Of a stretch of DNA of 17,422 nucleotides, positions 1-3,510 are shown piece after piece. This DNA comes from a virus (Duplodnaviria > Heunggongvirae > Uroviricota > Caudoviricetes): the IMG/VR virus record IMGVR_UViG_2600255005_000002; one strand, written 5' to 3'. Numbering within the stretch: position 1 is the first letter of the stretch; each line of letters starts with the position of its first letter. The notes below the pieces were generated by a model that was not told where the DNA came from, did no database searches, and was given only the letters and a program-made list of their open reading frames with translations. Both the position numbers and the translations under genes were made by a program.

Positions 1-1506
1 TTAGTAAGTACGAATCTTCGGCGGGAATGCCGGGCGCAGTTTCGGTTCCATGTTGACGCTACGTCGCGTCATGGATTCCGACTCTGGCAGATACAGGGAG
101 TGACACAGCCAGTTTTCATCATCACGCTCCGGGAAGTCGAAGCGGCTATGCGCGCCACGGCTTTCGGTACGGAAGTTGGCAGAAACAGCCGTTGCATACG
201 CCGTTTCCATCAGGTTATCCAGTTCCAGGCATTCAACGCGCTGGGTGTTGAACTCGCTGGAGGTGTCATCCAGACGGGCATTTTTCAGACGCTCGCGGAT
301 CACTTTCAACTGCTCAAGCCCTTTCGCCATCGCATCACCTTCACGGAAGACCGAGAAGTTATGCTGCATACATTCTTGCAGTGCTTTACGAATCGCCACC
401 GGATCTTCACCGTTACGGTTGTTGTTCCAGCGGTTCAGGCGCTCCAGAGAAGCTTCGACATCAGACTCGCTGGCATCGCGCAGTGCGCCCTGTTCGGCGA
501 TAGACTCTTGCAGATGCAGACCTGCCGCACGACCAAAGACCACCAGGTCCAGCAGCGAGTTGCCGCCAAGACGGTTAGCGCCGTGTACCGATACGCAAGC
601 AATTTCACCCACCGCGAACAGGCCAGGAATCACCACATCTTCGCCCTTCTCGTTCACGGTCAGCGCCTGCCCGGTCACTTTGGTCGGAATACCGCCCATC
701 ATGTAGTGACAGGTTGGGATAACCGGAATCGGCTCTTTCACCGGATCGACGTGAGCGAAGGTACGGGAGAGTTCAAGAATGCCCGGCAGACGGGATTCGA
801 GAACTTCTTTACCCAGGTGGTCGAGTTTCAGTTTTGCGTGTGGTCCCCACGGGCCATCACAGCCACGACCTTCACGAATTTCGATCATGATGGAACGCGC
901 CACCACATCACGCCCCGCCAGGTCTTTGGCGTTCGGCGCATAACGCTCCATAAAGCGTTCGCCATGTTTGTTCAGCAGATAACCGCCTTCACCACGGCAA
1001 CCCTCGGTGACCAGTACGCCCGCACCGGCAATACCCGTCGGGTGGAACTGCCACATTTCCATATCCTGCACCGGTACGCCTGCACGGATAGCCATGCCGA
1101 CGCCGTCGCCGGTGTTAATGTGGGCGTTGGTGGTGGACTGATAAATACGCCCTGCTCCGCCAGTCGCCAGCACGGTAGCGCGGGCTTTGAAATAAACCAC
1201 TTCACCGGTTTCGATGCACAGTGCGGTACAACCGACCACTGCGCCATCCTGGTTTTTCACCAGATCCAGCGCATACCACTCGGAGAAAATGGTGGTGTGG
1301 TTTTTCAGGTTCTGCTGATAAAGGGTGTGCAACAGTGCGTGACCGGTACGGTCAGCCGCTGCCGCTGTACGTGCCGCCTGCTCGCCGCCGAAGTTTTTCG
1401 ACTGACCGCCAAACGGACGTTGATAGATACGACCATCATCAAGGCGCGAGAACGGCAGTCCCATGTGTTCCAGTTCCAGAATCGCTTCCGGCCCGGTTTT
1501 ACACAA
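1..1506 (-). CDS. sdhA: Succinate dehydrogenase flavoprotein subunit, 5'-truncated fragment (C-terminal ~500 of 588 residues); reading frame broken at junction near 1505
   Basis: Minus-strand ORF translation ends ...[12 protein letters not shown] and contains the flavoprotein motifs ([21 protein letters not shown]) recognised as E. coli SdhA. The track start at 1506 is TTG at a position where SdhA has an internal Met (..YMCKTGPEA..), so the N-terminal ~87 residues are absent. Stop codon is at 1-3. Confidence 0.9.
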
Positions 1507-1512
1507 GAGTTA

Positions 1513-1911
1513 ATGGAATTGGCAAGTGAATTTTCTGGCATGCTTAAGTCGTCAGGTGTTCGGTCAGCGTTCTTTGTTGAAATGCTGATGCACGGCGGAC
1601 TTATGGCAACAATGAGACGTGTAATGGAAGACCAGAGAAAAGAACCTCCTCAGGTATACGTTTTGTCATCGAAGAAAACTGGGCTAACCAAAATTGGGTA
1701 TTCATCCAACATTCCACAACGCATCAAATCGCTTGGCAACTCTGGACCAGACTGCTTGAAGCTTGAGTGCCTGATCCCTGGTGGAAGAGAAACTGAAAAC
1801 ATGCTTCATCGCAAATTTGCCGCAAAGAGAAAGCACGGTGAATGGTTCGCCCTGTCCAAGGATGACATTGAGGGATTGAAATCTGTAGCGATTACTTCTG
1901 ATGGCTATTAA
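1513..1911 (+). CDS. T5orf172-type (GIY-YIG superfamily-like) small domain protein; start uncertain (ATG at 1513, 1603 or 1624)
   Basis: C-terminal 132 codons of track ORF 100..1911, the only part not antisense to sdhA. Sequence PQVYVLSSKKTGLTKIGYSSNIPQRIKSL...ENMLHRKFAAKRKHGEWFALS shows GIY(VYV)-x11-YIG(KIG) spacing, conserved Arg and Glu, and the terminal GEWF motif typical of T5orf172 domains. GGCGGA lies 3 nt before the ATG at 1603; only weak AAGAG precedes 1513. Confidence 0.6.
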   Translation: MELASEFSGMLKSSGVRSAFFVEMLMHGGLMATMRRVMEDQRKEPPQVYVLSSKKTGLTKIGYSSNIPQRIKSLGNSGPDCLKLECLIPGGRETENMLHRKFAAKRKHGEWFALSKDDIEGLKSVAITSDGY

Positions 1912-2425
1912 TGCTTGTTTAGAGCAATTTTCATAACAACTCTTCATTACAAAGCCCATTTACGGGTGGGCTTGATAATGAAACCGGAATTTATTCTGGG
2001 CCACCAGTTAACGGCAGTACCACGAAACAACCCAAGCCAGTAAGTGGAGAAATAACACCGGCAGCCACTGAAAGATGAACCTCCTGCCTTATGGCAAAAA
2101 AGATTCTTTGTGGTGGCGGACTGATGGAAAGACATCGGTTATTGCAGAGGCCATTCAATGAGTGGTCTCGACAATGGCTTATACCCTACACGGGATAACT
2201 TAACTGATATCCCTTTTAACGGATAAAGGTATTCAAGCCTGACACATCATGCGCTGTATCGTCGCTGTACTCTTGCATTAATTATGACTGTAGCCTGACG
2301 GGGAACTCCTTCTGCGCGAGTGTGCGGGAATAATCAAAAACGATGCACACCGGGGTTACCGGGTACACATATTTCATCATGCCAGCGAGTCCGGTTCTGG
2401 CGCGGAAGAAACCGGACGTTATGAT

Positions 2426-2836
2426 TTAGTGCGGAAATATTTGTGTAGTGTTCTGAATGTTCTCAGTAAATAGTAATGAATTATCAAAGGTATAGTAATA
2501 CCTTTTGTTTTCGTGGATATTTGTAACCCACCGAAAAACTCCTGCTTTAGCAAGGTTTCTTCTGTATTCCTGAAATGTGATCTCTCTGGATTTCAGCTTA
2601 TTAGAGGTCGTTTCTATAAGATGCCTATCCTTTGAAAATTTGACAGACACAATGTTTTTTAGGCCCTTTAATAACACTGTATTATCATTTTTTAATACAA
2701 TATGAACATTCTCTGTGGCTAAATAGTAAATGTAATGTGAGACATTGTGACGTTTTAGCTCAGAATAAAACCATTGATAGTTTAAATCGTTTCGAACTTT
2801 ATCAAATATTTGTTTAAAAATGACTACCTGATCCAT
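2426..2836 (-). CDS. Lambdoid right-arm accessory protein, DUF1398-like (YdfO/YbcV-family homolog); function unknown
   Basis: Minus-strand ORF (track 2426..2851, 141 aa). The internal ATG at 2834-2836 ([11 protein letters not shown]...) has a GGAAGG Shine-Dalgarno 7 nt upstream, whereas the first ATG at 2851 has none. AT-rich; resembles from memory the ORF in the last ~1 kb of lambda and its cryptic-prophage homologs. Confidence 0.6.
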
Positions 2837-2893
2837 AGATAAACCTTCCATGTGATATGAGGGGGCGTAGTCTGCACGATTATCTAAATTGCT

Positions 2894-3127
2894 TCAATCT
2901 GGTCTGACCTGTTTTCTGAGCAATTCAGTAATGTCACTCTTTTCTTTGTTTGCTTCAGGAGAAACTCTTTTTTCTGAGCACAGTCTCCGGCGGCAGGCTT
3001 CAATGACCCAGGCTGAGAAATTCCCGGACCCTTTTTGATCAAGAGCGATGTTAATTTGTTCAATCATTTGGTTAGGAAAGCGGATGTTGCGGGTTGTTGT
3101 TCTGCGGGTTCTGTTCTTCGTTGACAT
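2894..3127 (-). CDS. Small basic ribbon-helix-helix-like protein, DUF3950-like (YnfO/YlcI-family homolog of the lambda right-end ORF)
   Basis: 77-aa minus-strand ORF MSTKNRTRRTTTRNIRFPNQMIEQINIALDQKGSGNFSAWVIEACRRRL... The N-terminal ~50 residues match from memory the small ORF encoded just left of cos in lambda; the C-terminus diverges. Confidence 0.55.
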   Translation of the reverse strand: MSTKNRTRRTTTRNIRFPNQMIEQINIALDQKGSGNFSAWVIEACRRRLCSEKRVSPEANKEKSDITELLRKQVRPD

Positions 3128-3289
3128 GAGGTTGCCCTGTATTCAGTGTCGCTGATTTGTATTGTCTGAAGTTGTTTTTACGTTAAGTTGATGCAGATCA
3201 ATTAATACGATACCTGCGTCATAATTGATTATTTGACGTGGTTTGATGGCGTAGATGCACGTTGTGACATGTAGATGATAATTATTATC

Positions 3290-3510
3290 ATTTTGCGGGT
3301 CCTTTCCGGCGATCCGACAGGTTACGGGGCGGCGACCTCGCGGGTTTTCGCTATTTATGAAAATTTTCCGGTTTAAGGCGTTTCCGTTCTTCTTCGTCGT
3401 AACTTAATGTTTTTATTTAAAATACCCCCTGAAAAGAAAGGAAACGACAGGTGCTGAAAACGAACTTTTGGGCCTCTGTCGTTTCCTTTCTCTGTTTTTG
3501 TCCGTGGAAT
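3290..3510 (+). promoter_or_regulatory. cos: Lambda-type cos site (cosQ - cosN - cosB with Nu1/IHF binding elements), present as a joined circular-form junction
   Basis: Sequence ...GATCCGACAGGTTACG|GGGCGGCGACCTCGCGGGTTTTCGCTATTTATGAAAATTTTCCGG... reproduces the lambda right-end/left-end junction. It lies immediately upstream of Nu1 and includes the 14-bp inverted repeat AAAGGAAACGACAG (3437-3450) / CTGTCGTTTCCTTT (3476-3489). Confidence 0.85.
3327..3338 (+). promoter_or_regulatory. cosN: cosN 12-nt cohesive-end sequence GGGCGGCGACCT (terminase nicking site)
   Basis: Exact 12-mer GGGCGGCGACCT at 3327-3338, flanked by the characteristic GTTACG and CGCGGG. Confidence 0.85.

Follow-up and report, generated by a model that had tools for sequence, protein, structure and literature searches.

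The described system that comes closest to the element reported here is Proteo-phage-1 (RF03044), an orphan RNA motif known only from comparative genomics. Other non-coding RNAs of lambdoid late regions include lambda 6S RNA and StxS, which are the terminated pR'-tR' transcript (PMC7547250), and AgvB, AsxR and PasA-D, prophage anti-sRNAs and Pas sRNAs of 51-60 nt that have their own promoters and terminators and occupy conserved positions near gene-insertion sites, at the moron site 3' of pR' or beside Q/holin (PMC4104026, bioRxiv 10.64898/2026.05.13.724894). We analysed a 17,422-nt stretch of DNA from a tailed virus (IMG/VR record IMGVR_UViG_2600255005_000002; hereafter the window, which means that whole stretch), in which the gene-poor segment 1912-2296 follows the stop codon of a GIY-YIG/T5orf172 gene. 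Most of this segment, positions 1943-2227, belongs to a sharply bounded, non-coding module that is conserved across many lambdoid phages, and the core of that module is best read as a reduced enterobacterial variant of an extended Proteo-phage-1 RNA.

The element shares with Proteo-phage-1 the tail AAaAACaCCGGCAGCC, a 5' CCcaGCCAG, carriage by phages and a place on the late-gene strand of a lambdoid late operon, but both hairpins by which Rfam defines the family are absent from the window, and the location differs: the Pseudomonas copies at L134, L135/L139 and L205 lie between the late promoter/tR' and holin or tRNA genes, the enterobacterial copies between the lysis and packaging genes. It resembles lambda 6S RNA and StxS as a non-coding RNA candidate of a lambdoid late transcription unit, the Pseudomonas relatives lying just downstream of a pR'/tR'-like pair; unlike those RNAs, it is located downstream of the terminators (Pseudomonas) or kilobases downstream (window), no sequence similarity to either was found, and Rfam gave no other match. 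With AgvB, AsxR and PasA-D it has in common a small non-coding sequence at a conserved late-region position near sites of gene insertion, whereas AgvB, AsxR, the Pas RNAs and StxS all map to the pR'-proximal moron site (PMC4104026, PMC7547250), and the window contains no Rfam match to AgvB, AsxR or Pas. Recurrent joints and an insertion point for different genes also recall moron and mosaic boundaries (Juhala et al. 2000, as cited in PMC4104026); the classical joints are not known to be conserved, structured 285-nt units with a more constrained core. The literature we searched contained nothing on Proteo-phage-1 by name, nor on any element that is conserved in these phages between lysis genes and packaging genes.

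The module and its parts, in window coordinates, are:

1943-2227, + strand: conserved non-coding late-operon module of 285 bases, with left edge CATTACAAAG and right edge AACGGATAAA
1945-1980, + strand: hairpin 1 of the predicted fold, which includes the stem-loop at 1953-1972; interrupted 14-bp stem, loop UACG, no U-tract
1984-1999, + strand: hairpin 2 (CCGGAA-UUUA-UUCUGG), with G.U, G-C and A-U alternating at two positions
2002-2138, + strand: universal core, found in nearly every sampled copy whatever the flanks; a minority begin at 2011
2050-2139, + strand: match to covariance model R2 (described below), the only significant one in the window with filters off; 24.6 bits, E = 8.5e-6 on a rough calibration, runner-up 9.3 bits
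2054-2066, + strand: AACACCGGCAGCC, the conserved 3' tail of RF03044, an exact 13-mer with a single match in the window (0 of 200 shuffles)
2064-2117, + strand: long hairpin, with outer helix 2064-2069/2112-2117 and inner helix 2071-2075/2105-2109
2115-2138, + strand: GGCGGAC, then hairpin P5 (CUGAUG-GAAAGA-CAUCGG), whose stems covary across the family
2136-2160, + strand: recurrent insertion or replacement point inside the module, with at least five alternative continuations after 2136/2138, some of which rejoin at 2160
2137-2179, + strand: P6-like hairpin without a U-tract, 2147-2155/2161-2169 with outer helix 2137-2144/2172-2179
2192-2213, + strand: last hairpin of the module (GGGAUA...UAUCCC), diversity 0.007

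A BLAST search of 1912-2296 against 50,697 phage records returned 216 matching records, nearly always across 1945-2227 or a sub-block of it, with 87-97% identity for most of the phage records listed. Module-bearing phages include HK022, HK140, HK106, mEp234/235, HK620, N7, Kapi1, SEN22, ST64T, epsilon34 and P22. Among 5426 complete E. coli genomes, 448 (about 8%) carry at least 80% of 1940-2230 and 2553 carry some part, usually without any annotation from the Prokaryotic Genome Annotation Pipeline (PGAP). Strand and place are constant: in 10 of 10 annotated phages inspected the module lies on the late-gene strand, after endolysin/Rz and before an HNH endonuclease, small genes or terminase, and the accessory genes found between endolysin/Rz and the module are of the KilA-N, Rha, HNH or GIY-YIG type.

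The edges of the module are equally well defined. Fishing with an exact 23-mer (2080-2102) yielded 120 viral contigs and 114 unique copies of the block, in which the CATTACAAAG edge at 1943-1945 adjoins unrelated sequences, frequently ones that end in a stop codon, and unrelated downstream genes start after AACGGATAAA at 2227. Further joints recur at 1993-2002, 2011, 2136-2141 and 2190. About 40% of copies lack hairpins 1 and 2 yet keep the core. Among the PGAP names of genes inserted at 2136-2160 are Gp49 family, DUF551 and small hypotheticals, and the 3' arm of P5 is thus a hot spot for gene insertion or replacement of the downstream module. In 1943-2035 nucleotide diversity amounts to 0.07-0.16, versus 0.01-0.025 in 2036-2138 (the forced-identical 23-mer being excluded) and 0.007 in 2191-2227, the core being 5-10 times less variable than the 5' part of the module. 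The 3' end of the module (~2160-2230) is far commoner than the core, occurring for example in O157:H7 EDL933 (902980-903050) and in many of the 2553 matching genomes, and this wider-spread segment apparently travels with the DUF1398 module downstream.

These results bear on an earlier note, made from the sequence alone, whose observations were mostly right and whose interpretation is partly supported. It had treated the segment as an anonymous spacer poor in open reading frames (ORFs), in place of which we find the conserved block just described. It had also proposed a mosaic joint between non-lambda cargo and a lambda-like right arm: joints do exist here, but they lie at six recurrent places, from 1943-1945 to 2227, rather than at one boundary. 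The small RNA or regulatory element that it offered as further options has become the better supported, given a conserved non-coding module whose core matches the covariance model of a structured phage RNA, and the RNA structure and covariance searches it suggested produced both that match and a markedly stable fold of the + strand. The contrary outcome it had envisaged, a 3' untranslated region of a known gene with overlooked coding potential, is not what we see, as many different genes flank the block on both sides and no frame is conserved.

At the gathering threshold, Rfam gave no match anywhere in the window, and only tRNAs on 16 related loci. A permissive scan placed Proteo-phage-1 at 2031-2066 with 19.8 bits and E = 0.5, against a gathering score of 42 and scores of 76-86 bits for true members, and the alignment matched both single-stranded ends of the model (CCCAAG... 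and GAAAUAACACCGGCAGCC) and not its two hairpins. Indeed, P1 (GCCAGG...CCUGG) and P2 (with its GAUAAGCCGG loop) are absent, their 28 and 26 model positions shrinking to 6 and 6 nt, and none of the 114 enterobacterial copies has an insertion at this position. With a score below the gathering cutoff and neither P1 nor P2, the window element falls outside RF03044 as defined. What it keeps is the conserved single-stranded 3' tail of the family, present at 2050-2066, and the motif GGCnGAC-N4-7-GRAAGAC, which occurs once in the window where 0.006 would be expected and which appeared in 14 of 2000 shuffles. The tail AACACCGGCAGCC and this P5 motif, both defined on the Pseudomonas set, stand in order and 49 nt apart, for which the joint chance expectation is about 2e-8.

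The relationship becomes clearer once the Pseudomonas RNA is considered at its full length. Searching viral contigs with the consensus tail, and then with the P2 loop, recovered true RF03044 members and about 100 further copies, which BLAST and one chromosomal match place in Pseudomonas phages and prophages; a scan of genome contigs with a 17-mer gave almost nothing but chance matches, with one real Pseudomonas locus (L205) in 120. Across the extended-unit loci (numbered L132-L136, L139, L205 and L260-L376 among our sampled loci; for example L134:713-946), the 82 nt of RF03044 form only the 5' third of a covarying RNA of ~230-270 nt in Pseudomonas lambdoid phages. Beyond the RF03044 tail the order is P3 (a hairpin), P4 (a compound hairpin), linker GGUCUUUGGCnGAC and hairpin P5, which has a GRAAGA loop and whose stem takes at least eight different complementary forms; a terminator-like P6 usually comes last. 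At L134, L135/L139 and L205, the loci for which this context was established, the unit follows the late promoter and tR'-like terminators and precedes a lambda-S-type holin (PF05106) or tRNA genes; L132, L133 and L136 have the unit between an upstream terminator and its own terminator-like P6, with a convergent gene next. Only ~20 nt separate the upstream terminator from the motif in the Pseudomonas loci, which therefore leave no room for a promoter.

Covariance model R2 was built on 25 Pseudomonas sequences of one P5 geometry, gapless in P5 and with the structure checked pair by pair; it spans the Proteo-phage-1 tail, P3, P4, the UUUGGCnGAC linker and P5, and includes no enterobacterial sequence. 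In its alignment to the window the tail is kept, 2071-2075/2105-2109 pairs up with the P4 outer helix of the model, UCUUUG...CGGAC with the linker, and CUGAUG-GAAAGA-CAUCGG with P5. P3 (11 pairs, loop CCUCAC...) is absent, 38 model positions shrinking to 4 nt, while the P4 outer helix shows changes on both sides relative to the Pseudomonas copies and the 33 positions inside it become 21 nt with a different mini-hairpin. The terminator-like character of P6 is likewise missing, since the hairpin at 2147-2169 lacks a U-tract and no terminator was called on it. Run over 865 kb, R2 recovered all the Pseudomonas copies and found the same element in 7 of 8 other enterobacterial loci, namely L002 (HK022), L005 (mEp234), L009 (ST64T), L013, L015, L019 and L036, at 20-28 bits and E = 5e-5 to 8e-3. 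In a joint alignment of 80 distinct sequences (A6), changes occur on both sides in 25 of 32 pairs, and 96.3% of cells are paired versus 85.1% in shuffles, with 0 of 500 shuffles reaching any of the measures and slid partners giving 26-50%. The A-U/U-A forms of P5 in the enterobacterial copies fit the covariation of the family, and compensatory changes in helix 2 of this alignment support the long hairpin.

Folding of 1940-2230 points in the same direction. The + strand reaches a minimum free energy of -96.6 kcal/mol (z = -5.0), which 0 of 200 shuffles equalled, compared with z = -3.5 for the - strand; ten helices make up the consensus fold. Hairpin 1 pairs 1945-1949 with 1976-1980 and 1952-1960 with 1965-1973, and it encloses the stem-loop AGCCCA/TGGGCT (1953-1958 and 1967-1972, no T-tract) exactly as the earlier note had described it. 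Its variants are C-to-U changes that preserve G.U pairs on the + strand, and elsewhere too the frequent stem variants are C-to-U or A-to-G, keeping G.U pairs on that strand; at 2150, for example, A-U and G.U alternate, in 14 of 32 sequences. The loop of the long hairpin carries CCUCC (2080-2084) and a mini-hairpin (2085-2088/2093-2096). The ACCUCCU that it displays resembles the anti-Shine-Dalgarno end of 16S rRNA, and the P3 loops of the Pseudomonas copies carry CCUCAC. No terminator-like site was called on the + strand in 1912-2296, hairpin 1 being followed by GAUAAUGAAACC and not by a U run, and we rejected an intrinsic (Rho-independent) terminator as a reading of the stem-loop on these grounds. 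Two other candidate functions did not hold up. A sponge for CsrA/RsmA would be expected to show an excess of GGA, and 6 were observed versus 4.6 expected (P = 0.30, no enrichment); an ops/RfaH site, prompted by the GGCGG, was dismissed by eye at 7 of 12 matches with key bases that differ.

Overall, and with moderate confidence, we favor a model in which 1943-2227 is a horizontally exchanged non-coding module of lambdoid late operons that is transcribed as a structured RNA within the late message, and whose core is a reduced variant of the Proteo-phage-1 RNA. The part at ~2050-2139 would have retained the AACACCGGCAGCC tail, the P4 outer helix, the UCUUUG...GGCGGAC linker and P5 with its GAAAGA loop, and would have lost P1, P2 and P3 of the larger RNA of Pseudomonas lambdoid phages. 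The element probably acts as an RNA, either in cis or once processed, given that conservation falls on its loops and linkers and that it does not depend on the neighboring genes; that independence, taken together with the fixed strand and late-operon position, argues for an RNA acting in its own right in, or from, the late transcript. Most likely it would serve as a platform to which a factor of the host or the phage binds, one that affects expression of the late message, at a site where genes are frequently swapped, and the mosaic joints would then be the edges of the module plus one internal insertion point. A factor-binding cis element is, we think, the most likely form of this model, with a trans-acting small RNA (sRNA) and a pure recombination linker as its main rivals.

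At the same time, several observations weigh against this model. The enterobacterial copies, taken by themselves, show not one double compensatory change, and their covariation is no greater than that of shuffles; these copies are nearly identical and therefore cannot prove the structure by themselves, so the structure in the window rests on thermodynamics and homology. Of the six helices in the Pseudomonas unit, the window element lacks three. Model R1, a predecessor covering the Pseudomonas region 3' of the Rfam model, had no tail and a P5 mis-aligned by MAFFT; it found no significant match in the window (4.6 bits, E = 2.6) and was superseded by R2. The E-values of R2 are themselves rough, coming from a short calibration, and alignment A6 was fitted to R2, which favors the structure of that model, although the margin over shuffles is large. 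Fishing with an exact 23-mer inflates the apparent conservation near 2080-2102. No promoter or terminator brackets the element. A comparison with J02459 indicates that phage lambda is without it, so it is not essential for lambdoid growth. The literature searched on DUF2560, on P22 orf80/rha and on prophage sRNAs does not describe the element and yielded no expression data for it, and the parent family, Proteo-phage-1, is itself a candidate structured RNA without an assigned function.

Of the alternatives, the least probable by far is that the block encodes small proteins that were missed or are called hypothetical: a 35-aa MAKKILCGGG... product, a 21-aa product or the 62-aa product of the - strand. 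Such ORFs are annotated in the records of phages Dewey and Chlobot, and ST64T orf-118 starts at the equivalent of window 2091. However, all five candidate frames (21, 28 and 35 codons on the + strand, 55 and 62 on the - strand) are interrupted in relatives, each by stops or frameshifts in at least 25% of the unique sequences. The 62-codon ORF (1947-2135, - strand), the one frame that qualifies in length the claim, otherwise upheld, that the spacer has no ORF of 60 codons or more with a ribosome-binding site, stays open in only 2 of 31 unique relatives, a frameshift or stop breaking it in the rest. The 35-codon ORF (2091-2198, + strand) has premature stops in 8 of 32 unique sequences and a C-terminus that differs from one downstream module to the next, so that the frame is 19-48 codons long, and the 21-codon frame has a stop in HK022. 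No Shine-Dalgarno sequence stands before 2091 or 2135, the ATG at 2091 being preceded by CCTCCTGCCTT, which is not a ribosome-binding site, whereas the real downstream gene of ST64T and HK022 starts at MAEI... (MAEIT... in ST64T) behind its own GGAG. With every frame broken in relatives and no Shine-Dalgarno, we rejected the small-protein reading. The ST64T orf-118/DUF2560 annotation (L009:1647-2003) is a fusion of the non-conserved 35-codon frame with that real downstream gene, and the equivalent region of P22 is an 833-bp unannotated gap before ORF80.

The remaining alternatives accept a non-coding block and differ in what they ask of it. It is improbable, in our estimation, that the block is a recombination linker with no RNA-level function, conserved by recent homologous exchange at a module boundary, even though breakpoints recur at its edges and at 2136/2160 as they would at a favored crossover site, identity is very high as after a recent spread, and covariation is missing from the enterobacterial set. 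Simple hitch-hiking does not explain 5-10 fold differences in diversity within one block, nor a core that matches a covariance model from Pseudomonas phages too diverged for BLAST detection, nor conserved positions that coincide with helices and loops covarying in the Pseudomonas family, nor a fixed strand and position relative to the late genes. An independent gene for a trans-acting sRNA, with its own promoter or cut from the late transcript, and pairing with host or phage mRNAs, is likewise an unlikely explanation. In its favor, Rfam lists RF03044 under 'Gene; sRNA', the element does not depend on its neighbors, the units at L132, L133 and L136 are set between a terminator and their own terminator-like P6 with a convergent gene next, and sRNA genes are known from the late regions of prophages (PMC4104026); against this, there is no sigma-70-like promoter on the + strand in 1500-3260, the P6-like hairpin of the window has no U-tract, the ~20 nt upstream of the Pseudomonas motif cannot house a promoter, and no seed-like variable region was identified. 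We think it rather more doubtful still that hairpin 1 is a transcript-end or stabilizing hairpin of the upstream accessory gene and the remainder a leader of the next gene. Many different upstream genes do have their stop codon only a few bases from the start of hairpin 1, and in most phages a + strand gene equipped with a ribosome-binding site of its own starts 10-90 nt past the block or core, but the hairpin lacks a U-tract, the core persists in the ~40% of copies that have lost hairpins 1 and 2, the window, L047 and L107 have a convergent gene after the block and thus no gene to lead, and homology to the Pseudomonas unit, where P6 is mostly terminator-like, is left without an account.

Returning to the model of a structured RNA in the late transcript, a more specific version of it can be proposed, tentatively and as something that would more probably prove wrong than right: the core (~90-135 nt) may be a previously unrecognized cis-acting device, conserved in the late operons of lambdoid phages of both Pseudomonas and enterobacteria, that recruits a host or phage factor to the elongating late transcription or translation machinery. 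It might be a nut-like boxA/boxB platform that keeps polymerase termination-resistant, or a site controlling the translation or stability of the packaging-gene message. The nut sites (boxA plus boxB) and the put RNAs of HK022 are cis-acting RNA elements that modify RNA polymerase. In the core, a U-rich UCUUUG, 6-10 nt and a short hairpin with a purine loop (GAAAGA) loosely resemble the nut arrangement of boxA (CGCUCUUA) and boxB (loop GAAAA or GAAGA), and the element would, like those RNAs, be embedded in a long antiterminated transcript. It differs from nut and put in having a loop of six bases and not five, a partial boxA match and a late rather than an early operon, and the phages that carry it differ widely in their N, Q or put systems. 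If the cis-device version is true, the element marks a place where accessory genes insert without breaking late expression.

Regardless of its specific mechanism, the element is new as a variant of an already known RNA motif, and it brings an orphan motif into genetically tractable phages. Two results make experiments on Proteo-phage-1 tractable: RF03044 takes in no more than the 5' third of a longer RNA that covaries strongly among lambdoid phages of Pseudomonas, and a stripped-down version is present, unannotated, in the late operons of the model phages P22, HK022, HK106, mEp234, HK620 and ST64T. The parts that survive the reduction (tail, one helix, linker and GAAAGA hairpin) point to the likely functional core. 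There is also a consequence for annotation, in that pipelines call spurious small ORFs at the module or fuse the region to the downstream gene, as in ST64T orf-118/DUF2560.

The immediate surroundings of the module in the window are:

1507-1911, + strand: 3' 134 codons of a GIY-YIG/T5orf172 gene (Pfam T5orf172 2.3e-10, MUG113 4.6e-15), stop codon at 1909-1911
1912-1942, + strand: 3' flank specific to the GIY-YIG gene module, common only to records with the same upstream gene
2228-2425, no strand assigned: sequence belonging with the convergent DUF1398 module, lambda-like from ~2250
2426-2851, - strand: DUF1398 (YbcV-like) gene (Pfam PF07166, 2.3e-46), the convergent downstream neighbor of the spacer
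2894-3127, - strand: DUF3950/YlcI gene

The segment as first delimited is thus composite, and two of its coordinates need to be revised. At other loci, unrelated sequence takes the place of 1912-1942 up to the CATTACAAAG edge. The earlier note had the lambda-like sequence begin at about 2290-2300, but similarity to lambda (J02459, 87% identity) begins at ~2250 and continues up to cosN at 3326/3327, window 3326 corresponding to the last base of the lambda genome; the end at 2296 was arbitrary, the gene-free stretch reaching 2425, where the convergent DUF1398 gene has its stop codon. At 3327-3338 comes the cohesive-end sequence of lambda, GGGCGGCGACCT, and then nu1 (3516) and A (4035). An intact relative, E. 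coli GmM066, which is 100% identical to the window from 1506 to the query end at 2500, has the order Q, holin, lysozyme, Rz, GIY-YIG gene, spacer, DUF1398, YlcI, cos, which places the spacer within the late transcription unit, with the lysis cassette on one side and the packaging genes on the other.

The left end of the window is bacterial sequence. Positions 1-1506 are the last 501 codons of E. coli sdhA on the - strand, the window beginning exactly at the sdhA stop codon, and this remnant is fused, inverted, to the phage GIY-YIG gene near nt 84 of that gene, which the junction truncates at 1506/1507; the complete gene, of 163 aa, is found in GmM066, HK106 and Chlobot. The junction occurs in 0 of 5426 complete E. 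coli genomes, the best matches listed all starting at window 1506, and an inversion, a chimeric assembly or a constructed window could each account for it. In the automated annotation of phages Chlobot (L003; 1004-1429 and 525-713) and Dewey (L004; 2034-2253), the DUF1398 gene is labelled 'head protein', and broken frames of 62, 35 and 30 codons within the module are called hypothetical proteins. At L012, L033, L038, L117, L135 and L139, phage contigs that include both types, tRNA genes occur in twos or threes at distances from a few hundred bases up to ~2.5 kb from the element.

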